A stretch of 64,000 nt of DNA, taken from NCBI GenBank assembly GCA_018056245.1, contig JAGPFZ010000001.1, forward strand, positions 79,241 through 143,240, in the 5' to 3' direction. This document shows positions 9,082 through 44,368 of the stretch, piece after piece. Numbering within the stretch: the stretch's first letter is position 1; each line of letters opens with the position of its first letter. The notes beneath the pieces are model-generated. The model saw nothing but the letters and a program-made list of their open reading frames with translations. It had not been told where the DNA came from and made no database searches. The position numbers and the translations under genes are program-made. This stretch comes from Bacteroidales bacterium. GTDB taxonomy: Bacteria; Bacteroidota; Bacteroidia; Bacteroidales; VadinHA17.

Positions 9082-9086
9082 CTATA

Positions 9087-10109: not shown

Positions 10110-10113
10110 CTGG

Positions 10114-23219: not shown

Positions 23220-23633
23220 TCAGAGATATTTTCTATCTTCTTCCGGAACTTCAAAATATTTTGAATAACGTTCGGCATCAGGACCTCTCAGTTCAAGCTC
23301 CGAACCTCTTATTTTGTAAGTGCATTTTTCACCGGCAATATCTGAAAAATAAATGTCATATTCTTTTCCGTCTTCATCTATCATAATTATTCTTACCAGA
23401 TGACTATATTTTGCACTGTTGAGCAATGAATGGCATATGGGACATGTATAGAGATATTCCTCGCCCTCTTTCAACGGGAACGTGGGATGAGTAGTAACAG
23501 TATAATTTCCCAGTTCCGGATTAAGGTAAACAAGGCCTCTCTGGGAACTGTTCTTTTTTTGTGCAGCCAGGACGATGGAAGACTTAACATTAAGGTGTCC
23601 CCTGCATGCTTTACATAAATATTCAACTGCCAT
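23220..23633 (-). CDS. hypothetical zinc-ribbon protein, last gene of the hydrogenase operon
   Basis: The ORF track gives 23220..23678. The internal ATG at 23633 (MAVEYLCKAC...) leaves only an 11-nt overlap with the protease gene. It has a CxxC...CPIC cysteine pair. Confidence 0.5.
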   Translation of the reverse strand: MAVEYLCKACRGHLNVKSSIVLAAQKKNSSQRGLVYLNPELGNYTVTTHPTFPLKEGEEYLYTCPICHSLLNSAKYSHLVRIIMIDEDGKEYDIYFSDIAGEKCTYKIRGSELELRGPDAERYSKYFEVPEEDRKYL

Positions 23634-24090
23634 AATGTACCTCCTCTTTATTAATTTTTTTAATAATTTCTTTAGCAACTTTTGTTACAAGATACGAAAT
23701 TTTTTCGCCAAAAATAATAGTTTCGGGTTGAATTCCGAGAATAAAAACTTTTGCAGGGAAAAAATCGGAAATCCGTTTCAGTGAGATATTGTGTGTGTTA
23801 AAAGAAAAATCCCGTATCTCGTCAACAGGCAACAGCCTGCATGTTCCGGGTTGGGCATTCATATCAACACAGTCAATCAGAACAATAATATCCGGATTGA
23901 GTGAATTTATTTTTCCAATATAGTTTTCGATGCTTACTTCAACGGTAAGGGATATAATATTTTTCATGGGTTTTATTCGCCGGCTGATATAAACTCCCAC
24001 GCCGTCGTCACTTTTGAGCACATTACCTATGCCGGCAAAAAGAATTGTTTTGTCTGCCTCAGCCAGAATCTTATCTAGAGCAGGCAACAT
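23623..24090 (-). CDS. hycI: [NiFe]-hydrogenase maturation endopeptidase (HycI/HyaD family)
   Basis: Carries the family motif ILFAGIGNVLKSDDGVGVY. The ATG at 24090 overlaps the stop of the upstream gene (ATGA). The ORF track's longer start (24123) is probably an extension. Confidence 0.8.
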   Translation of the reverse strand: MLPALDKILAEADKTILFAGIGNVLKSDDGVGVYISRRIKPMKNIISLTVEVSIENYIGKINSLNPDIIVLIDCVDMNAQPGTCRLLPVDEIRDFSFNTHNISLKRISDFFPAKVFILGIQPETIIFGEKISYLVTKVAKEIIKKINKEEVHYGS

Positions 24091-24698
24091 CAAAGGTATT
24101 TTATAAGTACCAGTCTCAGGCAATTAGGGCAAAGGACATTAAACATATCTTTCCTTTTGAGCTGGTCTTTCACTTCCACTTCAATATCCTGACCTTCCGA
24201 AAGCTTTAGTTTCTCATTGAGCACATTAAGATCGAGTATGGAGGAATATGCCTTAGGGCCAAGTTTTTTATATATATATTGAAGATGTTCTTTGGTAGTT
24301 ATCACGGCTCCGCAATTTTTGCATATTAAAAGCTCTTTTTCCTGGTAATCAATATTTTCCGTCCTGTCGGTTACAGCAAGATCAAAGATTTTGTCGGATA
24401 GTTTAACTCCTTTCTGTGTTATGCAGTGTTCTTCACACTGACCGCAGAAGATACATTTACCATAGTCTCTTTTTATTATTCTTAATCTTTTTTCGACGTC
24501 GTCGGTAAAGGTTATTGCGCAGGGCGGACAAACATTTGCGCATGTCTCACACCCAACACAGTTATCGTTATCAACCACAGGCCTGCCTCTGAATTTTTCA
24601 AATGGAATATGTTCTTCGTAAGGGAATCTTGTTGTATACGCGGGTGTGAACAATGATATCAATGCCTCTTTCAATTCCCGAATCTTAGGGTATTTCAT
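24090..24698 (-). CDS. NuoI/MbhN/HycF-like 2x[4Fe-4S] subunit with C-terminal Cys-pair extension
   Basis: 202 aa with the motifs CVGCETCANVCP and CIFCGQCEEHC. The extra C-terminal ~75 aa contain CKNCG...CPNC. Confidence 0.8.
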   Translation of the reverse strand: MKYPKIRELKEALISLFTPAYTTRFPYEEHIPFEKFRGRPVVDNDNCVGCETCANVCPPCAITFTDDVEKRLRIIKRDYGKCIFCGQCEEHCITQKGVKLSDKIFDLAVTDRTENIDYQEKELLICKNCGAVITTKEHLQYIYKKLGPKAYSSILDLNVLNEKLKLSEGQDIEVEVKDQLKRKDMFNVLCPNCLRLVLIKYL

Positions 24699-25012
24699 TT
24701 TGCATCATTTTTATAGTCATCCTTTACACTTTTGTCGGTCATTTTTACGCCGAAATGATATGTACCTCTGACGAGTGCATGTGCTGCAACGGTAGCGCTG
24801 AAAAACAACAGAGGTATAGCGATAAGGCCTTTTATGCCAGCATCGGTAAAACCGAAATGGATAAAAACTCCCAGCAAAATACTACAGTATCCCATTGTGA
24901 CACATTTTGTTGCTGCCTGCAGCCTGTTATACACATCAGGCAGCCTTAAAAGTCCTATGCATCCAAAAATATTGAACAGGATTCCGATGCTAATAATAAT
25001 CAGTTCGATCAT
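24695..25012 (-). CDS. Mrp/Mnh antiporter subunit G-like (MbhC-like)
   Basis: 105 aa with 3 TM helices and the MnhG signature LLRLPDVYNRLQAATKCVTMG. Confidence 0.8.
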   Translation of the reverse strand: MIELIIISIGILFNIFGCIGLLRLPDVYNRLQAATKCVTMGYCSILLGVFIHFGFTDAGIKGLIAIPLLFFSATVAAHALVRGTYHFGVKMTDKSVKDDYKNDAK

Positions 25013-25014
25013 AT

Positions 25015-25281
25015 CTATTCGTTTAATTTTTTTCCGCTCAGATATTTGGCAAGGGTAAGGGTTCCGATAAAGCTGAATATAATCCAGGCTATTCCAATAT
25101 CAATGATGAATTTTTTCCCTGTAAGAATAGTAATAATGGCACATACGCCTACAACAAGTATTCCGAAGATGTCGATTGCCACCATTCTGTCGGGGATAGT
25201 TGGACCTCTGATTATCCTGTAAAGGCAGACTCCGCTCAGGGCAATCTGCGTATAAAGAAGTATTTCAAGCCATAAATTCAT
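25015..25281 (-). CDS. Mrp/Mnh antiporter subunit F-like (MbhB-like)
   Basis: 88 aa with 3 TM helices, sitting between the E- and G-like subunits. It overlaps the upstream gene by 4 nt. Confidence 0.7.
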   Translation of the reverse strand: MNLWLEILLYTQIALSGVCLYRIIRGPTIPDRMVAIDIFGILVVGVCAIITILTGKKFIIDIGIAWIIFSFIGTLTLAKYLSGKKLNE

Positions 25282-25766
25282 TCCGCAAAATTTTTAATAT
25301 ATTTTTCAAACGGGCTCATAATTATTCTTGAGTATTCTTCTGGGTTATCCGACCTGATATATATCCAGTGTATGTAAAAGTAGTCGCCTATTATATCAAC
25401 GGTGAGTGTGCCTGGTGTCATGGTTATTGAATTTGCAAGAAGGGTTTTTGCAAAGTCAGATTTCAGGTTTGTCTTTACTTTGACAATTCCCGGTCTTATG
25501 GGAAGTTTTGGGTGAAGCACTCTGTATGCTACGTCGAAATTTGCTTTTATGCACGACCAGATGAAGGTTACAAGGTAAACCAAAAACCAGAACCAGCGGT
25601 GGGGCTGTAAAAATTTGCCTACACCTGTGAAATAATACCTTGCAAAAATTATTGTGCATAAGAGTGATGCGGCTGTACCGACAATAATGTTAGGAACCGT
25701 TATCTTGAAGGTAAGCAGTAACCAGAAAATCAGGCAAAGTATAAAAAAGGCAATGTTTCTCTTCAT
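25278..25766 (-). CDS. Mrp/Mnh antiporter subunit E-like (MbhA-like)
   Basis: 162 aa with two N-terminal TM helices and a soluble C-terminal part. Size and order fit MnhE. Confidence 0.7.
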   Translation of the reverse strand: MKRNIAFFILCLIFWLLLTFKITVPNIIVGTAASLLCTIIFARYYFTGVGKFLQPHRWFWFLVYLVTFIWSCIKANFDVAYRVLHPKLPIRPGIVKVKTNLKSDFAKTLLANSITMTPGTLTVDIIGDYFYIHWIYIRSDNPEEYSRIIMSPFEKYIKNFAE

Positions 25767-25767
25767 A

Positions 25768-27306
25768 TTACATTCCGGTTATTGATATTGTGTAAAGCTG
25801 GGAATCTGTCAGTATCCGTATAGCCGGTGTGAGTATCACGTCTCTTACCTGTGGCAGAGCTATAAGGCTCAACACAAGGCAAAGGACCGCCAGGGTAACC
25901 ATGCTGAACACCATAGGGAACGGCACTTCTTTAGGGCTGTTTTCACTCTTTTCGATTTCTTTGTTATAGAATGCATAACGCTGAAATTTCATGAATGAAG
26001 CAAGTGTAACGATACTTACTATTACTGCAATAACTGCCAGGAGGTAGAATTTTCCAATAATAGCGGCTATAATTATTATCAGTTTGCTGAAGAAGCCGTT
26101 GAATGGCGGTATTCCGGATATTGCCATAGAAGCTACAAATGATGTGGACGATGTGGCAGGCATCAGTCCGGCCAGTCCGCCCATTGATTTAAGGTCACGC
26201 GTCCCTGTTCGGTACTCTATTGCTCCAGCGTTGAGGAACAGAAGGCTCTTAAAGGCGGCATGGTTGATTAGGTGAAACAATCCTCCTGCTATTGCAAGGG
26301 AAGCAACTTCGGGTTTTGTCCCCCGTGCAAGCAGTATCATTCCGATTCCAGCCGACATAACCACGTAGCCCATCTGGCTTATGCTATGGTAAGCCAGCAG
26401 CCTCTTGATATCCCACTGGCCTATCGCAAGCAATACACCTACAGCCATGGATAATGCGCCGAGTGTTGTTATCAGTACAGCCATTTCTTCAGTTATAATA
26501 AACATATTGAAGAAGAGCCTTAAAATGACATATATTCCGGCAGCCTTGATAAGCACGCCTGAAAGCATTGCAGAGATAGGCGAAGGAGCCGAGGAGTGTG
26601 CATCGGGCAGCCATGCATGGAAAGGAATGATTGCTGCTTTAAGCCCAAAACCACTGAGTAAAAGTAATTGCACAGGAATATAAAATGATTTTTCAGTATT
26701 TGTACCCAGTGCAGCTTTAATATCAGCAATGTTAAGTGTTTTTGCTTTCCAGTAAATGAAACTTATACCAATAAGGATGAGCATAGATGCAAGACCACCG
26801 AGAACCTGGTATTTGAAAGTAGCCTCGAGCTGTTCTCTCTCCACACCAAATGCCACAAGAGCATAGGAAGATATTGCAGAAATCTCGAGAAAAACATAAA
26901 TATTGAAAATATCACCGCTGAGCACTATTCCATTCATTCCGGCAATCATCAGGCAGAAAAGGGAATAAAAATAATTTTCGGAGGTGTACTGACTGACGTA
27001 TGTAAATGAGTAAACTATTGACAGGAAACCTATTGTATTTATTATACATAATAATATTGCGGAAAGGCTGTCGAGTACCATATAAATGCCGATAGGTGTT
27101 CCATTTACCGGTTCCCATCCGCCCACTTTATAAACGCTGATTTTTCCGGACAATCCCGCAATGGAAATATAACTTATTACCATAAGGAATAATAGTACGG
27201 TCATGCCGATATACTTATTGGCGCTCCTGAAAAATTTCCCAATGATCATTATCAGGAAAGCACCGCCCAGCGGTACGGCAACGAATAATGGAATAAGCGG
27301 ATTCAT
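25768..27306 (-). CDS. MrpD/NuoN/NuoM-like antiporter-type subunit
   Basis: 512 aa and polytopic, with proton-conducting-transporter family motifs (FHAWLPDAHSSAPSPISAMLSGVLIK...LLAYHSISQMGY). Confidence 0.85.
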   Translation of the reverse strand: MNPLIPLFVAVPLGGAFLIMIIGKFFRSANKYIGMTVLLFLMVISYISIAGLSGKISVYKVGGWEPVNGTPIGIYMVLDSLSAILLCIINTIGFLSIVYSFTYVSQYTSENYFYSLFCLMIAGMNGIVLSGDIFNIYVFLEISAISSYALVAFGVEREQLEATFKYQVLGGLASMLILIGISFIYWKAKTLNIADIKAALGTNTEKSFYIPVQLLLLSGFGLKAAIIPFHAWLPDAHSSAPSPISAMLSGVLIKAAGIYVILRLFFNMFIITEEMAVLITTLGALSMAVGVLLAIGQWDIKRLLAYHSISQMGYVVMSAGIGMILLARGTKPEVASLAIAGGLFHLINHAAFKSLLFLNAGAIEYRTGTRDLKSMGGLAGLMPATSSTSFVASMAISGIPPFNGFFSKLIIIIAAIIGKFYLLAVIAVIVSIVTLASFMKFQRYAFYNKEIEKSENSPKEVPFPMVFSMVTLAVLCLVLSLIALPQVRDVILTPAIRILTDSQLYTISITGM

Positions 27307-27309
27307 CTG

Positions 27310-27648
27310 TTATCCTCTTAGATTTTTAATCTCTCTTATATCCAGGGTTTTATATTTTCTGTAAATCCTGATTATCACTGCCATAAGCATTGCCGTAGTT
27401 GCCAGTCCTATTACAATAGCAGTCAGCACCATAGCTTGTGGCAAGGGGTCAACATAAATTACGTCGGGTTTTGCAGGGTCAACTATAGGAGGAACACCGT
27501 TTTTTACATATCCGATTAAGGCAAGAAAAAGAAAAGTGCTGAACTCCATGATTGACAATGATATTGCAATCTTCATAAGATTTCTTCTTGTGATAACGCC
27601 ATAAAGCCCGACAAGAAACAAAACAAAGCAGAGCAGGTAGAGTATCAT
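27310..27648 (-). CDS. MrpC/NuoK-like subunit (MbhG-like)
   Basis: 112 aa with 3 TM helices and a NuoK-like pattern. It overlaps the upstream gene by 4 nt. Confidence 0.8.
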   Translation of the reverse strand: MILYLLCFVLFLVGLYGVITRRNLMKIAISLSIMEFSTFLFLALIGYVKNGVPPIVDPAKPDVIYVDPLPQAMVLTAIVIGLATTAMLMAVIIRIYRKYKTLDIREIKNLRG

Positions 27649-28082
27649 CTTGTAATTTCTTCTTTAAATATTAATAATGCAAGAAAAATTGTTAGTATAG
27701 AAGCAGCGACTTCAATACCGATGAAAATGTTATACAGCGGGATTACTCCGGCACTTATGAGTTCACCAACTTTACCTTTAGGCAGCCAGTTCAGGAAAAA
27801 GACTTTTGTGCCGAGTGCCATACCGATCAGGGCAATTATTAAAGCGACAAGTACTCCAAAGTTTTCTGTAATGGTGGAGCCAGTCTCTTCCCTGGTAAGA
27901 TGCATAAAGTCGCTTCCAAAGGCAAGAATCAGAAGAATGAATGAGCCGGCAACGATTACACCGCCGGCAAAACCACCTCCGGGTGTCAGATGCCCGTGTA
28001 CAATCACATATACGCCGTAAAGAAAAACCATTCCACAAATCAACTGTGTTGTTTTCTTTACTATTACGGTCATTCCTTTCAT
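27645..28082 (-). CDS. MrpB-like subunit (MbhF-like)
   Basis: 145 aa with the motif HGHLTPGGGFAGGV, typical of MnhB-type subunits. Confidence 0.75.
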   Translation of the reverse strand: MKGMTVIVKKTTQLICGMVFLYGVYVIVHGHLTPGGGFAGGVIVAGSFILLILAFGSDFMHLTREETGSTITENFGVLVALIIALIGMALGTKVFFLNWLPKGKVGELISAGVIPLYNIFIGIEVAASILTIFLALLIFKEEITR

Positions 28083-28115
28083 TTTGTATTGTTTTCTTTT
28101 CTTAATTAACTATAT

Positions 28116-28643
28116 TCATTTCCTCCCCTTAATCCTTAAGATAGTCAGCACTCCCAGTACTGCCGTAACCAGCACTGTTGCCTCGCCAAGCGTATCATAT
28201 CCTCTGAAATCGAACACGACTCCCGTCACAAGGTTTGCACTTCCGGTTTTTTCAGCGGCACCTTCGATGTAGTGCTTTGCCATTCTAAGAGTCCCTTCGC
28301 CAAATTTATCGAGCGATCCTGTAGCCGTTTTCAGGAAGAAAAAAATCGCTATTACCAGAATCAATGCTGTGGCAATATTTATATATCCCTGTGGATCGGG
28401 TTTTGTGAATGGTTCGTCGCGGGTGCAGTCGAGCACTACAGCAACCATGATTACCAGAGTGATTGTTTCGACCACAATCTGAACTATTGCCAGATCGGGG
28501 GCTTTTAATAGCAGGAAACATATAACCAGTCCATACCCTACGATACTGCAGGAAATAACTGCCGACAGAAGGTCTTTTGCATGGATGGCAAAAATTGCTC
28601 CGAGAATCATCAAAACCAGTATAACCGATAGTGCAACTTCCAT
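28116..28643 (-). CDS. MrpA C-terminal-domain-like / MbhD-MbhE-like membrane subunit
   Basis: 175 aa. N-terminal TM helices are followed by the MnhB-domain motif [21 protein letters not shown]. Confidence 0.65.
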
Positions 28644-28655
28644 ATAGAAGCTTAA

Positions 28656-30506
28656 TTATAACATTATCAATAACATAATAAGTAATCCGGCAAATACCCA
28701 TAGTACGTAAGTGGATAATACGCCTGTATGCATTTTACTGAACAGGCCGCTGCAATAGAGGAGAGCCTGTTTCGATAAGTCATAGATATCGAACCATTTT
28801 TCCTGAGCCTTCCTGTATATTGCCGAGAAAAAGCCGAATTCGGTGATCGTCTTATAAAATTCCGGTGCAGGGTAAGCAGCTTTGTCGTAAAATTTCTCTC
28901 CTCCGATAAAACTGTCAGCAACACGGAATTTGCGTAAGCTTGTTGCAAGATAGATTAATATTCCAAGCAGAATTGAAACAAGTATCATGAATGATGCCAG
29001 GCTTGAGTTATATATGCCTGAGAATTTAAATGTGCCAGTCACGGGCATAAGCAGACGCGGAACAACAACTCCTGTGGCAAACACACCGAAAAATATACAA
29101 ATTAGTGCAATAATTGCAAGAGGGAACCACATCAGCGCGGGCACTTCCTTAATATTTTCCAATTCATTTTTTCGTCTTCCAAGAAAAATCCCGCCGATGA
29201 ATTTTATGAAGCTTGCCAGGGTAAATGCCGAACCGAGGACTGCCAGCACAAGCCACAGCACCCATAATTTATTAGGTATTCCCGAGCCTCCGCCGAAATC
29301 AATTATTGCCTGATAAATCATCCATTTCGAAGCGAATCCGTTCAGAGGAGGGATTCCGGAAATAGACATGGCACAAATCAGAGCAGATATGAATGTAACC
29401 GGCATAGCTTTCGAGAGGCCGCCAAGGTCTTCTATTTCGGTTTTTCCTGTGCGTTGTTCAACAGCACCTGCCGCAAGGAAAAGTCCACTTTTATAAAAAG
29501 CATTGTTCAACATGTGAAAAAGCCCTGCTGCAATGCCAATAAATGAACCCAGACTAAGTCCGACAATCATATAGCCTACCTGTGAAACAGCATGGTAGCC
29601 CAGAAGCCTTTTGTAGTTATGTTGTACAAGGGCCATCATTACAGCCGTAATAATCGTAATAACACCAAGTGTCAAGAGGAGCAGGGTGACCCACTCGCCC
29701 GGCACGAATATATCTGTTAAAATTCTGGTAAGTAGATATATACCAAGCAGTTTATCGAGTGAGGCCGGCATATATGCTGACGATGACGCCGGTGCATCCT
29801 TTGTATAATCAGGCACCCATGTATGGAACGGGAAAGCTCCGGCTTTCGTAAAACTGCCTGTGAGCATTGCAAGGAAAGCTGTTAACGCAAGAGCACTACC
29901 TGTGGGGACCTGCATTTCACTCATATTAAGCGAGCCTGTCATCTTCCACAATATTGCAATGCCCATTATCATAATAGTATCGGACGAACCGATCAAGATA
30001 AGGGTTTTTTTAGCCGTGGCAGAACCTTCCTCGCTTTTGTCCTGAATGAGTTTGTAAAGTGTCAAACCAAGGATGCCCCAGAAAGTGATGAAAACGAGCA
30101 TGTTATCAGCCAGTGCGGCGCCGTAGGAAAAACCAAGTGTTAAAAGGAAATAGGGATAGTAGTTATTGATTCTATGATTACCCTTATATGCCAGAGAATA
30201 AAGATTTATGAGGAAACTGAAAAAACTTATAAACAAAACTATAAGCTTTGCAAGATTATCAACATTGAATGTAAAAAATGATGTAATTTCCGGGGCTATG
30301 TAAGGTGGAAGAAAGATTGCGGGAACAAAGCTTTCCAGATTCATCTTTACATTTCCCGATCGGTATACGATTATTGTAAACCAGAATGTCACTGTGGTTA
30401 TTGCAAGTGAAACGATTCCCTTGAAAAGTTTGAGTTTGTCGGGAACCAGGAATAATAGCAGCCCTGTAATTACTGGAAGAAATAATATTAAGAAGTATTC
30501 GTTCAT
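28656..30506 (-). CDS. MrpA/NuoL-like antiporter-type subunit (MbhH-like)
   Basis: 616 aa and polytopic, with the motifs FHTWVPDYTKDAPASSSAYMPASLDKLLG and LLGYHAVSQVGYM of the complex-I antiporter-like family. Confidence 0.85.
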   Translation of the reverse strand: MNEYFLILFLPVITGLLLFLVPDKLKLFKGIVSLAITTVTFWFTIIVYRSGNVKMNLESFVPAIFLPPYIAPEITSFFTFNVDNLAKLIVLFISFFSFLINLYSLAYKGNHRINNYYPYFLLTLGFSYGAALADNMLVFITFWGILGLTLYKLIQDKSEEGSATAKKTLILIGSSDTIMIMGIAILWKMTGSLNMSEMQVPTGSALALTAFLAMLTGSFTKAGAFPFHTWVPDYTKDAPASSSAYMPASLDKLLGIYLLTRILTDIFVPGEWVTLLLLTLGVITIITAVMMALVQHNYKRLLGYHAVSQVGYMIVGLSLGSFIGIAAGLFHMLNNAFYKSGLFLAAGAVEQRTGKTEIEDLGGLSKAMPVTFISALICAMSISGIPPLNGFASKWMIYQAIIDFGGGSGIPNKLWVLWLVLAVLGSAFTLASFIKFIGGIFLGRRKNELENIKEVPALMWFPLAIIALICIFFGVFATGVVVPRLLMPVTGTFKFSGIYNSSLASFMILVSILLGILIYLATSLRKFRVADSFIGGEKFYDKAAYPAPEFYKTITEFGFFSAIYRKAQEKWFDIYDLSKQALLYCSGLFSKMHTGVLSTYVLWVFAGLLIMLLIML

Positions 30507-30513
30507 ACTGTCA

Positions 30514-31716
30514 TCAAAGTTTTTTCATTATCTCGCGAGTTTTTTGAGCCGAGGCTTTTATAATTTCATCTCCGTTCATTATTTTGTCGCCTGTAGTGAT
30601 ATCATAAGCTACAGCAAGTCTTTCCGTACAACAGTAGCAAGGGTCAACGGCAGCAAGGGTAAGTATTGCGTCGGAGATACTTTGTCCGATGCACGACTTT
30701 TTGAAAGTTGAAATATTCATATAGCTTGGTGCCCTTATTTTGTGCCGCGCAGGTGAATTGGAGCCGTCGGAAAAGACACAATGGAACACCTCGCCCCTTG
30801 GAGCTTCGGCTCGTCCTGTCCCTATACCTTCTGGTATATTCTTAATTTTTAATTCAATATCACCTTCTTTTTCCTTCTTCAGTCTGTCGAGGCATTGTTC
30901 AATTATTGATATTGATTCTGATATTTCAAGAAGTCTGACCTGAGCTTTGGCAAAGACATCACCTGTTACGGCTGTAATTACTTTCCAGTTAACGAGAGGA
31001 TAGGCAGCGTAGGGGTCGTCTCTCCGCACATCTATTGCAATTCCCGATGCCCTTGCAGTGGGGCCTACAGCACCAAAATCAATTATATCTTCCTTGGTAA
31101 GAACACCCACTCCTTTTGTACGTGCATGAAATACCGGGTCATCCATAACCGCTCCGGTTAGAAGTTCGGTCTTTTTCTTTACATCGGACAGAACTTTGCT
31201 AATGGCATTTATTTTTGATTCTTCTATATCTCTTCTTACTCCGCCCACTTTGAACATTGCATAACTGTTACGGTTGCCTGTAATCATTTCGAACAGGTCG
31301 AGAACTGGTTCACGGTATTTCCACGCCCACATGAAAAGGGTATTGTAGCCCAGAAAGTGTCCGGCAAGTCCTACCCAGAGAAGATGACTGTGAATCCTTT
31401 CAAGTTCGGCTATGATGCTTCTTATATACTTTGCTCGGTTTGGTATTTCGACTCCGCATATTTCTTCAACTGTATTTGCAAATGCGAAAGGATGAGATGT
31501 TGAGCATATTCCGCATATTCTTTCCACAAGGAAGAATACCTGATCGTACGTCTTGGATTCGGCCAGTTTTTCGATACTACGGTGGTTATATCCCGTTTCC
31601 CATTTGATATCTTTTACAATTTCACCGTCGCAATAGAGCTTGAAAAGCTCAGGTTCTTCCTGTAATGGATGATAAGGGCCAACCGGTATGAGAAACTTGT
31701 TGCTCATATTTTTCAT
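30514..31716 (-). CDS. group-4 [NiFe]-hydrogenase large subunit (NuoD/MbhL/HycE-like)
   Basis: 400 aa. N-terminal Ni-Fe ligand motif RICGICSTSH and C-terminal motif DPCYCCTER. A 34-residue tail follows the C-terminal motif. Confidence 0.9.
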   Translation of the reverse strand: MKNMSNKFLIPVGPYHPLQEEPELFKLYCDGEIVKDIKWETGYNHRSIEKLAESKTYDQVFFLVERICGICSTSHPFAFANTVEEICGVEIPNRAKYIRSIIAELERIHSHLLWVGLAGHFLGYNTLFMWAWKYREPVLDLFEMITGNRNSYAMFKVGGVRRDIEESKINAISKVLSDVKKKTELLTGAVMDDPVFHARTKGVGVLTKEDIIDFGAVGPTARASGIAIDVRRDDPYAAYPLVNWKVITAVTGDVFAKAQVRLLEISESISIIEQCLDRLKKEKEGDIELKIKNIPEGIGTGRAEAPRGEVFHCVFSDGSNSPARHKIRAPSYMNISTFKKSCIGQSISDAILTLAAVDPCYCCTERLAVAYDITTGDKIMNGDEIIKASAQKTREIMKKL

Positions 31717-32150
31717 TTAAACTCTTTTCTGTATGGATACACACCTTCGGGCCAGTTGCCGTCTGAAAGAAGCTTCTCCATGTTAGGGTGATTGACAAAA
31801 TCTATTCCGAACAATTCATGTATCTCACGTTCAATCCAGTTCGATGCATTTAATATATTCGAAAGAGATTCTATCCGGGGATTTTCCTGACTGAGAATTA
31901 CATGTATGTTCAGCACAAGCCCTGTTTCGTCTTTGCTGAAGTGATAATATATCTCAAAGCCTTTCTTTGTGTGCAGTGCCGATGCAATAATAAACCTGCA
32001 TCCAGCCTCTTTGTATAGAAATTCGGTTATCTGAACTATAGAAGATGGATTTATAGTAACAACATATCTTTTGTCATGCCTTTTTACCGTTTCGGTAATA
32101 TCAGCATTAAACTTGTTGTTCAATTCCTTTATGATTGCTTCCGTATCCAT
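31713..32150 (-). CDS. NuoC/MbhK-like 30-kDa-type subunit
   Basis: 145 aa with the motif ASNWIEREIHELFGIDFVNHP, typical of the NuoC/HycE N-terminal domain. It overlaps the large subunit gene by 4 nt. Confidence 0.8.
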   Translation of the reverse strand: MDTEAIIKELNNKFNADITETVKRHDKRYVVTINPSSIVQITEFLYKEAGCRFIIASALHTKKGFEIYYHFSKDETGLVLNIHVILSQENPRIESLSNILNASNWIEREIHELFGIDFVNHPNMEKLLSDGNWPEGVYPYRKEFK

Positions 32151-32237
32151 TTATTTAATAATCAATTACTTAAACTATCTCATTATCAATATGTTATATT
32201 ATCTCTTTACCCCTCTATACTTAATACCTCTGTACCA

Positions 32238-32269
32238 TTTCTCCCATTCTTCCTTTCTCACATTCTTCC
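32238..32269. repeat. 16-nt tandem direct repeat inside the intra-operon spacer
   Basis: TTTCTCCCATTCTTCC at 32238-32253 is followed directly by TTTCTCACATTCTTCC at 32254-32269, with one mismatch. It lies in a 134-nt non-coding gap that is strongly pyrimidine-rich on the plus strand, so purine-rich in the mRNA. Confidence 0.6.
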
Positions 32270-32284
32270 ATCACCCATTTTTTC

Positions 32285-32698
32285 TCACAGGCTATTTACA
32301 AGTTTCATTATTCCTGCAATAATTGCCTCTGGTTTTGGCGGGCAGCCAGGTATATAAGCATTTACCGGTATAATTTTATCCACAGGCCCTGCAAAAGTGT
32401 TTCCTTCGGCAAATATACCTCCTGTGCATCCGCATCCTCCAATAGCCACAACCAGCACAGGTTTTGGTGCCTGGTTGTATATTTCGAGGAGTCTGTCTTT
32501 ATCCCGTATGTTTATCGAGCCGCTTACAAGGATCACGTCGGCATGGCGTATGCTTCCTGCAAGAAGTATCCCAAAACGTTCCACGTCGTATCGCGGTGTG
32601 AGACAGTCGAGAATCTCAATATCGCAATTGTTACACGATGCTCCGGCGAAGTGGAAAACCCACAGTGATTTTTTGAAACAAAAACTTTTAAAGCCCAC
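32285..32698 (-). CDS. group-4 [NiFe]-hydrogenase small subunit (NuoB/MbhJ-like)
   Basis: 137 aa with the four Cys of the proximal [4Fe-4S] cluster (SCNNCDIE, GGCGCTGG, PGCPPKPE). Confidence 0.9.
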   Translation of the reverse strand: MGFKSFCFKKSLWVFHFAGASCNNCDIEILDCLTPRYDVERFGILLAGSIRHADVILVSGSINIRDKDRLLEIYNQAPKPVLVVAIGGCGCTGGIFAEGNTFAGPVDKIIPVNAYIPGCPPKPEAIIAGIMKLVNSL

Positions 32699-32709
32699 CT
32701 CTTAATTTT

Positions 32710-33642
32710 TTAATATCCAAAAAATGCCAATACTATTGCAACAATGGCCAGAAGATTCATCCATACAAGGAAGAAACTCATTGCCTGTTTAATTTTTATT
32801 CTTGGGTTAGTATTCCTGATAAGAGTCAGTAGAAGCACAATCCCGGCCACTTTCAATACAGTCCACAGAATGTTTATTCCGTTAAGGTTGAATCCGTTCA
32901 TAAACAAGCCTGTAAGGAAAGCCGGAAGAATAAAAAGCATTATATATTTTGTGAGTTTGATCAGTGCATAAGGCGGACCCGAGTATTCGATAAATGTTCC
33001 TTCCGCAATTTCTGTTTCCGCCTCTGCCATATCGAAAGGCACAAGTCCGAGTTTTGCCTGCACACAAAATATACCAGGAATAAAAAGCAATATTCCCGAG
33101 ATACTTCCTATGAAAGGAGATGAATTTTGTTGTATTAAAATTACTGAATTCAGGTCGAAGTTTTGTGAAGCTTTGACTATAATGCCGGCGATTACCAGAA
33201 GGAAAGTTGATTCATAGCTCATAATCAGTTTCATTTCACGCGAGCTGCCTACTGCAGCAAGCGGGTTTCCTGATGCCAGCGACCCTATGATATATGAGAA
33301 CGAGGGTATTGTAAGCAGGTAAAAGATGACGATAAGGTCGCCCTTAAATCCTGTGGTTATGTTGAACAGAGGAAGAAGGATAAAAGCTGCTGCAAGTACG
33401 GCTCCCGATAAAGCGAAAATTGGTGCCATCAGGAATAAAATCGGGGATCCCTGTTTGGGTAATATGGTTTCCTTTACCAGAAGAAGCTTAAAAAAATCAT
33501 AAAATGGCTGTAAAATAGGAGGACCCTTTCGAAATTGAACTCTTGCAGTTATTTTTCTGTCGAACCATGAAAGAAAGGCTCCGATAACTGAAGAGAACAG
33601 GAGTCAGGGAAAGACAAGCAGATAAAACAAATACAACGCCAT
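32710..33642 (-). CDS. NuoH/MbhM/HycD-like membrane subunit, interrupted by an in-frame TGA at 33604-33606 (intact ATG-started ORF is 32710..33429)
   Basis: The ORF track gives only 239 aa. The same frame continues upstream through the family's conserved loop [31 protein letters not shown] to an ATG at 33642, which is 3 nt after the upstream gene's stop. Codon 13 of that reading is TGA (MALYLFYLLVFP*LLFSSVIGAFLSWFDRK...). Confidence 0.8.
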
Positions 33643-33645
33643 TTT

Positions 33646-34143
33646 TTACTCTTTATCAGTTTTATATATGAAGTCTTTGATTAAAACTCTTTCGTTAAGT
33701 TTGAAAATATTTTCTTCCGGCGATTCTTTCATATCGGTAATAGAAACGGTTCCCGGAGGAGAGGCTTCGATAAATTTAATCATCTCCTCACTATCTGTCA
33801 GGTCGTAATACAGGTCTTTGTTCCTGTGGTGTTTAAAAAAGTCCGTCATCATAGTTCCGAAAGGGCATATAGAAACACACGATTTACATGACACACATAG
33901 ATTTATGCTCCGATTTATTAACCCTTCCTCATCTTTTTCCAGTGCGTCGGCGGGGCATGAGGCAATGCATGGTGCGTCCTCGCATTTTCTGCATGAGTAC
34001 CTGAATACTGCAAGCTCTCTTATCGTTTTAAGCCCGTTAATGTTGTGAACAGGATAAAACACGGCTTCGGGCAGTTGAAGGTCGTGATTTTCAGCCATCG
34101 CCGCTCTCAGTTTTACCATGTCTATAAGAATCCTTTTTGCCAT
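33646..34143 (-). CDS. 2x[4Fe-4S] ferredoxin-like electron-transfer protein (HycB-like)
   Basis: 165 aa with the motifs CRKCEDAPCIASCP and CVSCKSCVSICP. Confidence 0.75.
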   Translation of the reverse strand: MAKRILIDMVKLRAAMAENHDLQLPEAVFYPVHNINGLKTIRELAVFRYSCRKCEDAPCIASCPADALEKDEEGLINRSINLCVSCKSCVSICPFGTMMTDFFKHHRNKDLYYDLTDSEEMIKFIEASPPGTVSITDMKESPEENIFKLNERVLIKDFIYKTDKE

Positions 34144-34147
34144 AGCA

Positions 34148-34969
34148 TTACCATATATGAGGCTGGTCTTTTATTTCATTCCAGGTAAATACAGGGCCGT
34201 CTTTGCACACGAAATATTTTCCCATCATACAGTGGCCGCATTTTCCCAGGCCGCACGACATGTTCTTTTCCATCGAAAGATAGATATCATTTTCGGGATA
34301 ACCCATCTGCAATAGTTTTTGAGTTCCGAACTTCATCATTACAGGCGGGCCGCAGACTACTGCTACCGAGTTTTCGACATCCACTTTCACATCGTCGAGA
34401 AGAAGAGTGACAACACCCACTTTTTCTGTCCAGTTGGAGTCGGCTTTATCCACACTTCTGAATACTTCGAATTTTGGTGTTCTTCTGAGCTCGGATATAT
34501 AAGGCTTGTAAATACAATCTTCAGGCGTTTTTGAGCCGTAACATAGAATGACCTTTCTGAGTTTGTCGGTTATGGCTGCCAGGTTATACAGTAATGAACG
34601 TATTGGAGCAAAGCCGCATCCGCCGCCAAGAATTAGTATTTCCTTGTTATAGAACTTTTCGACAGGATAACCTCTACCGAAAGGTCCTCTTATGCCCATA
34701 AAAGCACCTGGTTTTAAGTTATGCATGTATTCCGTCACATAACCGGTCTTCATCACTGTTACTTCTATCTTATCCTTTACAAGCGGCGATGAAGACGGAG
34801 TAAATGGCGCCTCTCCAATGCCGTCAACAGTGAGTTCAATAAACTGCCCCGTACTGAAAGAAAAATATTCCTCAGGAATAAGAACAAAAGTCTTGATAGT
34901 CGGTGATTCATCAATTATATCAGCAACTTTTGCCCTTAAAGGTTTATATATATTAATGTCGGCTGGCAT
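34148..34969 (-). CDS. FAD/NAD(P)H-binding oxidoreductase with C-terminal [2Fe-2S] (sulfhydrogenase gamma / AsrB / PyrK-like)
   Basis: 273 aa with a ferredoxin-reductase-type FAD fold (FMGIRGPFG), an NAD(P)-binding GGGCGFAP motif and a C-terminal CGLGKCGHCMMGKYFVC cluster motif. Confidence 0.8.
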   Translation of the reverse strand: MPADINIYKPLRAKVADIIDESPTIKTFVLIPEEYFSFSTGQFIELTVDGIGEAPFTPSSSPLVKDKIEVTVMKTGYVTEYMHNLKPGAFMGIRGPFGRGYPVEKFYNKEILILGGGCGFAPIRSLLYNLAAITDKLRKVILCYGSKTPEDCIYKPYISELRRTPKFEVFRSVDKADSNWTEKVGVVTLLLDDVKVDVENSVAVVCGPPVMMKFGTQKLLQMGYPENDIYLSMEKNMSCGLGKCGHCMMGKYFVCKDGPVFTWNEIKDQPHIW

Positions 34970-34975
34970 GCGAAA

Positions 34976-35968
34976 TTATTTTGCCATTTCAACGAAAATA
35001 TTGTTTTTGTTTATTTTGCCTATGCATGCTTCGATACACCGCCCGCAGCCTGTGCAGGCAAGGTGATTGAATCTTTCAGGTTTCCATACATATTTACACA
35101 AGTACCTGTTTTTGAAGCGTTCATGAAGTTCTTTTAGGGGATCCTCACCCGCTGCTGTTCTTTCGAAACCCGGATACTGACATGCATCCAGTTGTTTGAT
35201 CTTCCTGAAGTCCGGCTTATCAATTAACAGGAAGCAGGTACATGTGGGACATATAGCAGTACATGCGCCGCACGAAACACAGGTTGCGGAATTTTTAATC
35301 CATACCGGCTTTTCAAGTTTGTTTAGAATACTTCCGGTCTCCTTGTAGCCGGGTAAATCTTTGTTGGTTCTCTGCAGAATCCCCTCTATTTCCCTGTGCC
35401 TGGCATCTACAAATGACAAAATACTGTTGTCATTGACTTTTGAGGCACCAATAGTATTGGAAACAAAGTTTCTTCCCTTCTGAGAAATAACCCTGAAAAA
35501 GAACTGGTCATCTTTTACAACTATTGAAAGGTCGGCTATCCTTTCAGCCCACGGGTTCACTCCATACGTTGTGCAATGACAATGTTCGACAACATCGAAA
35601 CAATCTGAACTTATGATTAAAGTGTTTTCTCTTTGTCTTTTGTAAAAAAGATCCTCAAAATTCTTATCCAGATATATTTCGTCGAGAATACCAAGTGCTT
35701 CAATATCACATGCCGGAGCCCCTATAATAATCCGTGATTTATCATCTTTTCTTTCATCAGTTACATTTTCCTTAACCGGAAGGAAGAATAACTTAAGAGG
35801 CGTTACAGGTTTGGGTTTATTGTATATAATATCTTTAATTGATGCCGGAGTAAGAAGCTCGTAATCCTTGCTGAATTCATTCGAAAGAGGAGCAAAAATG
35901 TTGTGAGAATCAAGCAGTTTCTCAAGCATTTTATTCCATTCTGCCTTGCTAATGAAGAAATAATCCAT
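34976..35968 (-). CDS. multi-[4Fe-4S] protein (sulfhydrogenase beta / AsrA-like); first gene of the hydrogenase operon
   Basis: 330 aa with the Cys clusters APACDIEALG, CFDVVEHCHC, CVSCGACTAICPTCTC and CTGCGRCIEAC. It lies 7 nt upstream of the gamma-like gene. Confidence 0.75.
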   Translation of the reverse strand: MDYFFISKAEWNKMLEKLLDSHNIFAPLSNEFSKDYELLTPASIKDIIYNKPKPVTPLKLFFLPVKENVTDERKDDKSRIIIGAPACDIEALGILDEIYLDKNFEDLFYKRQRENTLIISSDCFDVVEHCHCTTYGVNPWAERIADLSIVVKDDQFFFRVISQKGRNFVSNTIGASKVNDNSILSFVDARHREIEGILQRTNKDLPGYKETGSILNKLEKPVWIKNSATCVSCGACTAICPTCTCFLLIDKPDFRKIKQLDACQYPGFERTAAGEDPLKELHERFKNRYLCKYVWKPERFNHLACTGCGRCIEACIGKINKNNIFVEMAK

Positions 35969-36040
35969 TTTAAATTATTCTTTCATTGAATAAATATAAA
36001 ATATAATAAAACAAAAAGGAAAATAATTCTTAATAAATAA

Positions 36041-36056
36041 TGTGAAAAAATTCACA
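36041..36056. promoter_or_regulatory. Rex operator (palindrome TGTGAA-AAAA-TTCACA)
   Basis: The extended sequence aTGTGAAAAAATTCACAat has perfect inverted half-sites matching the published Rex box TTGTGAA-N4-TTCACAA. It sits 73 nt upstream of the operon start at 35968 and about 95 nt upstream of rex. Confidence 0.7.
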
Positions 36057-36150
36057 ATAAATTTAAAAAACATTATATCAGATTGATAGGTCTTTACTTT
36101 TATAGAGAAAATTTTTTTAACTTGCATCAATATCGGAAATATCGCGTTTA

Positions 36151-36166
36151 TGTGAAAAAAATCACA
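36151..36166. promoter_or_regulatory. second Rex-box-like site overlapping the rex start codon
   Basis: TGTGAAAAAAATCACA has one mismatch in the right half-site. The GTG start of rex (36152) lies inside it. Confidence 0.55.
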
Positions 36167-36793
36167 AAAAATGTAATCAAAGACAGCCTTAAGAGGATAT
36201 TTCTCTATAGAGCATGTCTTTACAAACTCAAGATGATGGGTATGGAGAGAGTGTTTTCTTATATCATAGCTGAAGAGGCAGGTGTAACAGCCGACCAGGT
36301 CAGAAAAGATTTTTCGGAGTTCGGTATAAAAGGGAATAAACGCGGCGGTTATTTAATTACCGACCTACTTGAAAAAATGGAGAATATCTTTTATAGAAAT
36401 AGCGAACATAATATAATACTTGTGGGAATGGGCAATCTCGGACTGGCTCTTTCTGGATATTCTATGTTTGCACAACGTCACCTGAATGTGATTGCTGCTT
36501 TTGACATTGATCCTTTGAAATTCAAGATTAGACACAAAATTCCTGTTTACCCTATGAGTAAACTAAATGAGGTAATTCAGTGTTATAAGGTAAAGGCAGC
36601 AATAATAACGGTTCCGGAGATTTCGGCCCAGCAGGCGTGTGATGAACTGGTGAAATGTGGAATTAAGGGAATAATAAATTTTGCTCCTGTTTTGCTGAAG
36701 GCTCCTGCCGATGTTATAATAAATAATGTTAATCTTTGTGACGAACTCGAGAGTGTGATATATTATGTGGATAATCCTCTCAAGTTGAGATGA
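36152..36793 (+). CDS. rex: redox-sensing transcriptional repressor Rex
   Basis: Winged-helix segment IIAEEAGVTADQVRKDFSEFGIKGNKRGGY and Rossmann motif ILVGMGNLGLAL. The likely start is the in-frame GTG at 36152 (214 aa). The ORF track's TTG at 36083 adds an implausible extension. Confidence 0.85.
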   Translation: MKKITKNVIKDSLKRIFLYRACLYKLKMMGMERVFSYIIAEEAGVTADQVRKDFSEFGIKGNKRGGYLITDLLEKMENIFYRNSEHNIILVGMGNLGLALSGYSMFAQRHLNVIAAFDIDPLKFKIRHKIPVYPMSKLNEVIQCYKVKAAIITVPEISAQQACDELVKCGIKGIINFAPVLLKAPADVIINNVNLCDELESVIYYVDNPLKLR

Positions 36794-39074: not shown

Positions 39075-39286
39075 GTTTACCTGCAAAAGTTATTGAAATA
39101 AAAGGCGATATGGCAGATGTATCCGTAGGTGGAACTGTCTTCAAAGCCGGCCTTCAGCTTGTGGATGATGTTAAACCTGGCGATTATGTGCTTCTGCATG
39201 CCGGATTTGCAATTCAAAAGATTGACGAGAAAGAGGCTCAGGAAACACTTCAGCTTCTTGAAGAGATAAGAAATTCTGCAGGATAA
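39065..39286 (+). CDS. hypC: hydrogenase assembly chaperone HypC
   Basis: 73 aa with the invariant N-terminus MCLSLPAKV. Confidence 0.9.
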   Translation: MCLSLPAKVIEIKGDMADVSVGGTVFKAGLQLVDDVKPGDYVLLHAGFAIQKIDEKEAQETLQLLEEIRNSAG

Positions 39287-39295
39287 AGAACAGGG

Positions 39296-40387
39296 ATGAA
39301 ATACGTCGGCGAATATCGTGAAGCCAGTGTCGTTAAGGCTCTGGGTGAGACAATCAGAAGAGAAGCCACAGGTGAATATTCGTTTATGGAAGTCTGCGGC
39401 GGTCATACATCGGCAATACATCGCTTTGGCATCCCTTCTCTGCTGCCTGAAAATATCCGGCTTCTTTCGGGTCCGGGCTGCCCTGTCTGCGTTACATCTA
39501 TAAGCTATATAGACCGCCTTGTCAGACTTTCTTCGGAACAAGATGTTATTATTGCATGTTTTGGCGATCTTATTAGGGTGCCGGGTTCTGCATTGTCGCT
39601 TGAAAAAGAAAAGGCAAGAGGCGCCGACGTGAGGATTGTTTTTTCCGCCCTCGATGCTATCGAAATTGCACGCAATAACAGAAACAAAAAGATAATATTT
39701 CCCGGAATTGGCTTCGAAACAACTGCACCGGGGACTGCTGCCGCAATAACTTCTGCATACAATTCGGGGATTGATAACTTCTTTGTGTTGAGCGCACATA
39801 AAATTATGCCGCCGGCAATTGAATCATTGATAGTAAACGGTACGGCCGTGAACGGATTTATTTGTCCCGGACATGTTGCAACAATTACGGGTGCCGACTC
39901 TTTCAGTTTTATTTCGGACAAGTATAAACTCGGATGTGTTATTTCTGGCTTCGAACCGGCCGATATAATGCTTTCGGTACTGATGCTCGTGCGTCAGATA
40001 AACAGCAGGCGATTCAGAACGGAAATTCAATATTCGAGAGCTGTGACGCCACAGGGCAATCTCAAGGCGAAAGCAATTCTCGGAGAGGTTTTTTCCCTGT
40101 CGGATACGGAATGGAGAGGCCTCGGTGTGATTAAATCGAGCGGACTTAAGATAAGAGAGAAATATTCAGATTTAGATACTGATTCGGTTTTTGATTCAGG
40201 GCCTGAAGTAACTGAAGTCAGGGAAAATGTTTTATGTTTGTGCGGTGAAGTTCTTAGGGGAAATAAAATTCCTCCCGACTGCAGGCTTTTCGCAAAATCG
40301 TGTACGCCTGAGAATCCTGTGGGCGCATGTATGGTGTCGGCTGAAGGCGCCTGTAATGCTTTTTTCAGATACAGGAGAAATGGATGA
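39296..40387 (+). CDS. hypD: hydrogenase formation protein HypD
   Basis: 363 aa with the motifs CGGHT, GPGCPVCV and FETTAP. Confidence 0.95.
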   Translation: MKYVGEYREASVVKALGETIRREATGEYSFMEVCGGHTSAIHRFGIPSLLPENIRLLSGPGCPVCVTSISYIDRLVRLSSEQDVIIACFGDLIRVPGSALSLEKEKARGADVRIVFSALDAIEIARNNRNKKIIFPGIGFETTAPGTAAAITSAYNSGIDNFFVLSAHKIMPPAIESLIVNGTAVNGFICPGHVATITGADSFSFISDKYKLGCVISGFEPADIMLSVLMLVRQINSRRFRTEIQYSRAVTPQGNLKAKAILGEVFSLSDTEWRGLGVIKSSGLKIREKYSDLDTDSVFDSGPEVTEVRENVLCLCGEVLRGNKIPPDCRLFAKSCTPENPVGACMVSAEGACNAFFRYRRNG

Positions 40388-41387: not shown

Positions 41388-41402
41388 TTTAAATAGAATC
41401 CG

Positions 41403-41744
41403 ATGCATGAACTATCTATAGCTGAAAACCTTTCAGAGATTGTCATTGAAGTTGCTGAAAAGGAAAAACTCTCAAAAGTTACAAGGGTAAATGTCAGCTT
41501 TGGGAAGATGGTGCAGATAATTCCGGAGTTTTTCGAAACAGCATTCAGGGCTGCCGTAGCCGGTACAATTGCAAATGATGCAGAAATAAACATAGAAGAG
41601 GTTCCTGTCAAAATCAGATGTAATAATTGTAACCTCGAGTTGACTCTTGATGACTACAATTTTGTGTGTGAACGATGTGGTTCTTCCGATATTGATATTA
41701 TAACGGGAAGAGAGCTATATGTTAAAAGCATAGAAGGAGAATAA
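41403..41744 (+). CDS. hypA: hydrogenase nickel-insertion protein HypA
   Basis: 113 aa with the N-terminal MHELS motif and a zinc site (CNNC...CERCG). Confidence 0.9.
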   Translation: MHELSIAENLSEIVIEVAEKEKLSKVTRVNVSFGKMVQIIPEFFETAFRAAVAGTIANDAEINIEEVPVKIRCNNCNLELTLDDYNFVCERCGSSDIDIITGRELYVKSIEGE

Positions 41745-41746
41745 CG

Positions 41747-43151: not shown

Positions 43152-43165
43152 ACATTTTTTATCTT

Positions 43166-44329: not shown

Positions 44330-44368
44330 CCAGAATTATTAATTAACACGTTTATAAATAAGAAAATT

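Follow-up and report, generated by a model that had tools for sequence, protein, structure and literature searches.

'Hun', a supercomplex of 16 subunits that joins a Ni-Fe hydrogenase to an antiporter for Na+/H+, was defined by Glass et al. (bioRxiv 10.1101/536078), who found it in Atribacteria, Firmicutes, Omnitrophica, Elusimicrobia, Bacteroidetes and Kosmotoga isolates, wastewater 'ADurb' bins being among the Bacteroidetes carriers. According to these authors HunAB are AsrAB-like while AsrC is missing, and the large subunit HunG belongs to HydDB group 4g, in a distinct sub-cluster with the distinctive motif pair CGIC...CYCC. In their Table S5, Pfam families are given for hunR (PF02629 and PF06971) and for hunA-hunP; ferredoxin is proposed as the electron donor, and the paper makes no mention of Rex, NADH or coupling to NAD(P)H. 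Here we analyze a hun operon in a 64-kb stretch of contig JAGPFZ010000001.1 from a Bacteroidales bacterium (the window in what follows). We lean slightly towards reading it as an operon that would combine an electron path from NAD(P)H, an Mrp-like ion arm and Rex control, and that would vent H2 in low-H2 habitats.

A further described relative is the Saganbacteria RX5A cluster, which like the window joins cooF, asrA and asrB to a group-4 hydrogenase and Mrp-like subunits and has been read as an 'oxidoreductase module' (Matheus Carnevali et al. 2019, PMC6349859). It includes a molybdopterin oxidoreductase, whereas the window cluster does not.

The operon and its relatives

Gene for gene, the Pfam series of the window and its order are identical to hunR and hunA-P in Table S5. 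The 16 structural genes stand in the fixed order, HunG carries CGIC in its L1 motif (RICGICSTSH) and CYCC in its L2 motif (DPCYCCTER), and a Rex-family hunR with PF02629 and PF06971 is adjacent. AsrC/NIR_SIR gave no match among the operon genes or the 42 that were scanned of the 52 open reading frames (ORFs) of at least 140 aa in the window, so that the AsrAB-like pair without a siroheme subunit, already remarked on in a preliminary description made from the DNA alone, is shared as well. Judged by gene content and order the operon is hunR-hunA-P, an architecture already known and named Hun in 2019-2021. The preliminary description had suggested that the architecture might be new unless members of a characterized subgroup routinely carried the beta/gamma-like genes. 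They do so routinely, as described below, and since the Hun operon with the same genes is published, regulator and AsrC absence included, the novelty is removed. The window differs from the Hun of Glass et al. in a few respects: their hunR is co-directional, whereas that of Bacteroidales is transcribed divergently, at the head of hypFCDEAB; two further genes, hycI and the Zn-ribbon gene, are added; and a stop codon interrupts hunD of this copy, whose hunE-hunF spacer is long. One of the related loci, 81% identical, comes from 'Bacteroidetes bacterium ADurb.Bin145', and relatives in Cloacimonadota are 72-73% identical, the Mbh+Mrp enzymes of that phylum being classed as group 4g in the literature.

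Among solved structures HunG matches best Mbh of Pyrococcus furiosus (6cfw_L, 1.2e-83), followed by HycE of formate hydrogenlyase (FHL; 3.3e-76) and the L subunit of MBS (2.5e-50). Mbh (group 4d, 6CFW), the nearest solved large-subunit homologue, shares with Hun an MbhJ/K/L/M/N-type module on a membrane anchor and an Mrp-derived Na+ module with homologues of MbhD/E, MnhB and MrpE/F/G. However, a single antiporter-like subunit and a separate MbhI are found in Mbh, whereas Hun has two antiporter-like subunits in an MBS/Mrp-like arm, and Mbh takes up ferredoxin directly, whereas Hun adds HunABC and has a HycF-like HunP with a Cys-rich tail. Assignment to the 14-subunit MbhA-N complex, with ferredoxin on MbhN, was rejected because of the two antiporter-like subunits, the obligatory HunABC and the HycF-like HunP. 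With P. furiosus MBS/Mbx (6U8Y) the operon shares two antiporter-like subunits, the MbsH'/HunH match and the full Mrp complement, but in MBS, which reduces polysulfide, the Ni-Fe cysteine ligands are gone, whereas HunG keeps all four and is accompanied by HycI and Hyp genes. Motif conservation was scored over 44-57 homologues per protein; in HunG (57 sequences) C68, C71, C360 and C363 are invariant, bearing out the intact Ni-Fe ligands noted earlier, and C362 of CYCC is 98% conserved. This invariance and the weaker MBS L match rule out MBS/Mbx. Escherichia coli FHL (group 4a, 7Z0S) and the Coo/Mch enzymes follow the same logic as Hun, from a soluble module through a HycB/CooF-type protein (HunC) and a HycF/CooX-type protein (HunP) to the [NiFe] site. 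FHL membership nevertheless fails on a defining feature; the substrate module of FHL/Coo/Mch is FdhF or CODH, whereas Hun has a flavin/NAD(P)-type pair together with a full Mrp arm.

By homology the membrane arm is of the MBS/Mrp type, because residues 2-539 of HunH align with MbsH' (6u8y_X, 618 aa; 8e-44) and a second antiporter-like subunit is present; a review assigns arms of this type three proton paths and a Na+ module. HunP finds its best structural match in HycF (7z0s_F, 5.5e-17) and is nearer to HycF than to MbhN. Besides eight conserved Cys it has four more in a C-terminal extension (residues 126-193, CxxC...CxxC), whose second CxxC lies outside the HycF and MbhN alignments, which end before residue 190; the extension could be a site that binds Zn or serve HunC as a docking domain. 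HunG continues for 33 aa after DPCYCCTER, and this extension fits processing by the operon-encoded HycI. The extension, HycI and the adjacent hypFCDEAB genes together indicate what is predicted to be a matured, active [NiFe] enzyme.

The input side of the complex is formed by HunA, HunB and HunC. HunA matches the beta subunit (9nez_B, 7e-32) and HunB over residues 6-270 the gamma subunit (9nez_C, 2e-47) of P. furiosus sulfhydrogenase I, so that the sulfhydrogenase likeness proposed earlier holds. HunA has sixteen conserved Cys. In 48 HunB sequences, down to 51% identity, the FAD motif GEAPFTPSS, the NAD(P) motif GGGxGxAP, CGPP and the four [2Fe-2S] Cys are invariant. HunC has eight invariant Cys and structural matches that include HycB (7z0s_B, 3e-8). 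Compared with sulfhydrogenase I beta/gamma (group 3b, 9NEZ/9NF0) and with AsrAB, HunA and HunB are thus homologous over their full length and retain the FAD, NAD(P) and [2Fe-2S] motifs, but their partner is a membrane-bound group-4 core instead of a cytosolic group-3 alpha/delta dimer or siroheme AsrC. Neither of these systems fits as a whole: a group 3b sulfhydrogenase was discarded because only beta/gamma are present and the large subunit is of group-4 type (ShyA and HydA score 35 and 25 bits against 700 and 880), and AsrABC because TIGR02910 reaches 117 of 323 bits and TIGR02911 199 of 289 bits, and there is no AsrC.

We compared the window genes by tblastn with 61 related loci, 58 of them from a large-subunit scan of species-representative genomes and three from protein look-ups. 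Strict collinearity with the window is seen in 57 of the 61, all 16 hun genes are in the same order in 37, and the AsrA/AsrB/ferredoxin trio precedes the NuoH-like gene in each of the 41 loci with enough upstream DNA (41/41), which answers the neighborhood survey proposed in the preliminary description. Such an arrangement goes far beyond what chance would give. Most carriers are uncultured Bacteroidales of digesters, fens and sediments, the others being Cloacimonadota, Desantisbacteria, Latescibacteria, Aerophobetes and unclassified bacteria; within Bacteroidales alone, thousands of HunG homologues exceed 80% identity, and at least eight further lineages have relatives. Between unrelated phyla HunG is 59-73% identical and HunA ~30-35% (L040-L053 and L059-L061 against the window), which suggests that the operon has spread horizontally and that HunA is under much weaker constraint.

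Two of the distant loci have a modified gene order. In the Aerophobetes locus (L060, 4311-11978) rex, hunABCDEFG and hunP are present with no adjacent Mrp-type genes, and because this variant keeps its redox genes in that form, the redox core and the pump may be separable modules. Next to the same variant lie response regulators and a sensor histidine kinase that is [FeFe]-hydrogenase-like. In locus L061, cbiM and a PDGLE-domain gene (Ni/Co uptake components) lie between hunD and hunE (8050-9064), and hypA, hypF, hypC, hypD and hypE follow hycI in the same direction.

The co-directional minus-strand block of the window spans 23220-35968 (Table 1). ORF listing and translation give 18 genes in this block, and not 19 as first counted, so the preliminary observation as a whole is partly confirmed: the content, order, strand and spacing it gave agree with ORF translation, Pfam and NCBIfam, the searches of every subunit with Pfam and NCBIfam returned the assignments first made, and its two larger spacers were found at their lengths, the one of 33 nt at 28083-28115. 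The hunE-hunF spacer is ~119 nt longer than in the nearest relative, L002, where the gap is 15 nt; across related loci this gap ranges from -17 to 304 nt. A scan of the operon for sigma-70 promoters and terminators gave counts equal to the shuffled expectation, with a consensus that is poorly suited to Bacteroidota, and the same scan found no internal terminator signal. An Rfam scan of the window matched a tRNA-Ser only.

Table 1. Features of the hun locus (coordinates in the window)
Feature	Position	Strand	Description
hunA	34976-35968	-	AsrA/sulfhydrogenase-beta-like multi-[4Fe-4S] protein, 330 aa; PF17179 Fer4_22
hunB	34148-34969	-	AsrB/sulfhydrogenase-gamma-like, 273 aa; PF00970 FAD_binding_6, PF00175 NAD_binding_1, PF10418 DHODB_Fe-S_bind
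hunC	33646-34143	-	HycB/CooF-like 2x[4Fe-4S] connector ferredoxin, 165 aa; PF13247 Fer4_11
hunD	32710-33642	-	NuoH/MbhM-like membrane anchor, 310 codons; PF00146 NADHdh, 1.6e-63 with the stop read as X
hunE	32285-32698	-	NuoB/MbhJ-like small subunit, 137 aa; PF01058 Oxidored_q6; NCBIfam NuoB subfamily above cut-off
hunE-hunF spacer	32151-32284		purine-rich, 134 nt
hunF	31713-32150	-	NuoC/MbhK-like, 145 aa; PF00329 Complex1_30kDa
hunG	30514-31716	-	group-4 [NiFe]-hydrogenase large subunit, 400 aa; PF00346 Complex1_49kDa, PF00374 NiFeSe_Hases
hunH	28656-30506	-	MrpA-N/NuoL/MbsH'-like antiporter-like subunit, 616 aa; PF00361 Proton_antipo_M
hunI	28116-28643	-	MbhD+MbhE fusion, MrpA C-terminal-like, 175 aa; PF13244, PF20501
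hunJ	27645-28082	-	MnhB/MrpB-like; PF04039
hunK	27310-27648	-	MrpC/NuoK-like; PF00420 Oxidored_q2
hunL	25768-27306	-	MrpD-like antiporter-like subunit, 512 aa; PF00361, PF00662
hunM	25278-25766	-	MrpE-like; PF01899 MNHE
hunN	25015-25281	-	MrpF-like; PF04066 MrpF_PhaF
hunO	24695-25012	-	MrpG-like; PF03334 PhaG_MnhG_YufB
hunP	24090-24698	-	NuoI/HycF-like 2x[4Fe-4S] subunit, 202 aa; Fer4 family matches (Fer4_7 in the Hun series)
hycI	23623-24090	-	endopeptidase for HunG C-terminal processing; PF01750; in 41 related loci
Zn-ribbon-like gene	23220-23633	-	137 aa, CxxC...CxxC; in 32 loci
rex/hunR	36152-36793	+	Rex-family redox-sensing repressor, divergent; PF06971, PF02629 (Put_DNA-bind_N, CoA_binding); heads rex-hypFCDEAB; likely GTG start
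proximal Rex operator (predicted)	36040-36057		TTGTGAATTTTTTCACAT, 13/14, 71 nt upstream of the hunA ATG
distal Rex operator (predicted)	36150-36167		TTGTGATTTTTTTCACAT on the minus strand, 12/14; overlaps the rex GTG start
hypF-hypC-hypD-hypE-hypA-hypB	36804-42397	+	maturation genes 3' of rex

Rex and the hunA control region

The preliminary description had placed a Rex operator upstream of hunA. The palindrome is there, although at 71 nt and not 73, but that description had overlooked that the divergent neighbor is itself rex (an ORF with possible starts at 36083 and 36152 that ends at 36793) and that there is a second box. Using the canonical consensus TTGTGAAnnnnTTCACAA, with its 4-nt spacer, and a cut-off of at least 12 of 14 positions, the whole window has three matches: these two boxes and a weak one (12/14) at 10092. 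The control region thus holds both an operator of this type and a Rex gene. Boxes that pass the cut-off within 300 nt upstream of hunA occur in 33 of 42 loci, compared with 7 in 583 kb of background. Most of these 33 loci have their box at the distal position, ~185-190 nt upstream of hunA. Only the window and L002 carry the proximal box; L006, L008 and L020 have boxes similarly far from hunA, at 68-86 nt.

A divergent rex is adjacent in 32 Bacteroidales loci, and in most loci of this order the divergence of rex-hypF/D/E from hunA is kept. In Latescibacteria, Aerophobetes and a third lineage rex is instead co-directional and directly upstream of hunA. The Latescibacteria and Aerophobetes loci (L059 and L060) have perfect or near-perfect boxes just upstream of hunA, and the third lineage (L061) has two perfect boxes just upstream of rex; in each case these are the sole matches in the 21-kb locus. 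Because rex genes and boxes thus accompany the operon in distant phyla too, we regard the association predicted from these sequences as robust, in agreement with the Rex link first proposed. The link is also implicit in the published hunR, with its PF02629 and PF06971 domains.

Electron donor and coupling

In the mechanism that we propose, HunB, with its FAD, NAD(P)-binding domain and [2Fe-2S] cluster, would exchange hydride with NAD(P)(H). Electrons would then pass to the [4Fe-4S] clusters of HunA, through the HycB/CooF-like connector HunC to the HycF-like HunP, on to the proximal cluster of HunE and finally to the [NiFe] site of HunG, seated on the HunD anchor. The preliminary description had the trio plug into the NuoI/NuoB electron-input site, which remains a sound model given the HycB/CooF-like HunC and the HycF-like HunP. 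HunH-O would together make up an Mrp-like arm that is complete and, like that of MBS, contains two antiporter-like subunits, and by which catalysis would be coupled to the movement of H+ or Na+. Rex(HunR) would act at the operators of the shared control region, such that a high NADH/NAD+ ratio would de-repress both the hydrogenase and its maturation genes. The reaction should be reversible, but in H2-scavenged habitats NAD(P)H electrons would most likely be vented as H2.

For group-4 hydrogenases the HydDB table gives H2 evolution with ion export, and ion import as the driver of H2 oxidation. An enzyme that pays with ion-motive force for the release of NAD(P)H electrons as H2, one of the options first considered, would have the opposite polarity and looks unlikely; we accordingly down-weighted an ion-gradient-driven route from NADH to H2, which would invert the coupling of Ech, Eha and Mbh. 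For Ech, Eha and Ehb too, H2 evolution goes with ion export and ion import with H2 oxidation. With this polarity conserved, NAD(P)H-driven H2 evolution would need both very low H2 and a reduced NADPH pool in order to support ion export, because the redox potentials (E0') are -320 and -414 mV; such a requirement would fit the habitats of the carriers.

Several lines of evidence favor NAD(P)(H) as the redox partner. The three-protein input module is obligatory, while Mbh accepts ferredoxin without any such module; the nucleotide and flavin motifs of HunB are strictly conserved; and both characterized homologue systems, sulfhydrogenase I beta/gamma and AsrAB, are linked to NAD(P)H, sulfhydrogenase I gamma and AsrB being NAD(P)H enzymes. 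We therefore consider the NAD(P)H link of the preliminary description reasonable on comparative grounds, arguably better than the published model, and the earlier interpretation as a whole partly supported. The stronger statement, that under Rex(HunR) control Hun works as a group-4 [NiFe] hydrogenase that is linked to NAD(P)H and translocates ions, in which case the published ferredoxin model would be wrong, we put forward tentatively, as a possibility that is not far from balanced. To our knowledge, such coupling of NAD(P)H-H2 redox chemistry to ion movement has no biochemical demonstration in any member of the complex-I/Mbh superfamily.

A number of observations weigh against an NAD(P)H-linked, Rex-controlled Hun. 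H2 formation from NAD(P)H is endergonic at standard conditions (E0' -320 against -414 mV), and a pumping arm with three paths looks oversized for this reaction. A literature search for an NADH- or NADPH-dependent Mrp-linked group-4 hydrogenase, or for follow-up work on Hun, found no biochemical study. The sole published Hun model has ferredoxin, not NAD(P)H, feed HunABC. At the level of protein families, HunA and HunB score far short of the NCBIfam equivalog cut-offs (132 against 690, 176 against 600, 117 against 323 and 199 against 289), all ShyB/HydB/AsrA matches of HunA being under theirs. Concerning regulation, the box that is conserved is the one that overlaps the rex start, ~185 nt from hunA, so that coding constraint or autoregulation could account for part of its conservation; the proximal box occurs in no more than a few close relatives. 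Nor does Rex control prove an NADH donor, since a membrane [NiFe] hydrogenase that depends on ferredoxin is also repressed by Rex in Caldicellulosiruptor bescii. Finally, the window copy itself has an in-frame stop codon in hunD.

The same C. bescii precedent speaks for an alternative that we hold to be rather unlikely but a serious contender, namely that Hun is ferredoxin-dependent: pyruvate:ferredoxin oxidoreductase and similar enzymes would reduce ferredoxin, which would feed HunABC or HunP for H2 evolution while the arm exports H+ or Na+ for ATP synthesis, the flavin domain of HunB being a mere wire or docking domain. This is the model of Glass et al. (10.1101/536078), and papers on metagenome-assembled genomes (MAGs) read 'group 4g Mbh + Mrp' in this way by default. 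Ferredoxin is the donor of all characterized Mbh and Ech enzymes, and it alone gives enough driving force for an MBS-like arm with three proton paths. However, Mbh takes ferredoxin directly at MbhN, whereas here a three-protein module of ~770 aa is obligatory in 41 of 41 loci, HunB has invariant FAD and NAD(P)-binding motifs, and sulfhydrogenase I gamma and AsrB, the characterized HunB homologues, use NAD(P)H. The homology of HunA and HunB to sulfhydrogenase I beta/gamma also speaks for operation in reverse, in which Hun would oxidize H2 and reduce NAD(P)+ like a membrane-anchored sulfhydrogenase I recycling H2, either pulled by ion inflow at trace H2 or as a three-way node at which electrons of ferredoxin, H2 and NAD(P)H are shared. 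Reversibility is a feature of group-4 enzymes, whose H2 oxidation is known to be driven by ion import; the Aerophobetes variant with hunABCDEFG and hunP but no adjacent Mrp genes suggests that the redox core can work pump-free; and the neighboring trimeric [FeFe] hydrogenase described below could be the H2 producer. We nevertheless regard an uptake role as quite improbable, because de-repression by Rex at high NADH/NAD+ suits a consumer of NADH better than a producer, the hosts are fermenters from low-H2 methanogenic habitats, and reduction of NAD+ by H2 is already exergonic at moderate H2, so that an ion gradient would be wasted.

The hunD stop, which was missed in the preliminary description, raises the different question of whether the window copy works at all. 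It is a TGA at codon 13 (33606-33604, minus strand), a position that is Gly in 48 of 48 homologues; the window reads CCC TGA where L002, with a 97% identical HunD, reads CCA GGA. Recoding of TGA, as Gly (code 25) or selenocysteine, was rejected on account of the Bacteroidales host, the GGA of L002 and the use of TGA to end other genes such as hunE. This copy of hunD may thus be non-functional, or the base call may be wrong. That the source genome carries a decaying pseudo-operon, in which the anchor has lost its start to the nonsense codon and the complex is inactive as a result, would agree with the loss of a universally conserved Gly codon, with the lack of any ATG, GTG or TTG from the stop to codon 72, and with the unusual 119-nt insertion between hunE and hunF relative to L002. 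We consider decay unlikely, since the remaining 17 genes, all intact, match their L002 counterparts at 88-99% identity, TGA is leaky, and the NCBI annotation has a 296-aa product that starts just after the stop. Moreover, the defect comes down to one base, a G-to-T change, in a contig assembled from a metagenome. With a MAG as the source, a true nonsense mutation and an error of sequencing or consensus are equally likely, and an assembly or read error, or strain heterogeneity, is at least as likely as decay.

Adjacent genes and the biological role of Hun

Downstream of hycI, the block ends with the Zn-ribbon-like gene, whose 137-aa product has no Pfam match. It has 548 homologues, and the few that come with an organism name are all from Bacteroidales, one being Odoribacter; a look-up of contigs encoding the exact protein returned nothing on record. 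The gene is missing from the Hun operons of other phyla, and L061 has hypA after hycI instead. An AlphaFold2 model built from a 24-sequence alignment is unusable (mean confidence, pLDDT, 48). On the other side of the control region, rex and hypFCDEAB probably form a single transcription unit divergent from hun.

Directly after hypB, at 42687-46150 on the plus strand, lies a trimeric [FeFe]-hydrogenase cluster that encodes a NuoE-like protein of 154 aa, an unusually short NuoF-like protein of 387 aa and a HydA of 593 aa; no Rex box of at least 12/14 was found upstream of it. A heterodisulfide-reductase-like cluster at 7295-12355 (plus strand) comprises a Fer4 protein, a CCG-domain protein, a pyridine-nucleotide-disulfide oxidoreductase and a 635-aa Fer4+CCG fusion, and the weak Rex-like match at 10092 falls inside it.

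Research on fermentation and syntrophy has long asked by what routes anaerobes get rid of NADH as H2, the accepted ones being confurcating or NADH-dependent [FeFe] hydrogenases. Hun is abundant, yet it is routinely annotated as a ferredoxin-dependent 'Mbh/4g' enzyme. The window adds supporting comparative evidence, in the form of motif conservation and a cross-phylum link to Rex, along with one possibly defective copy. If the NAD(P)H-linked reading is true, Hun would be a new member of the complex-I family with an NAD(P)H input other than NuoEFG. Fermenters and syntrophs of low-H2 habitats (digesters, sediments and the deep subsurface) would then be able to reoxidize NAD(P)H to H2 without ferredoxin or confurcation, and metabolic models of digesters, sediments and the subsurface would need revision.

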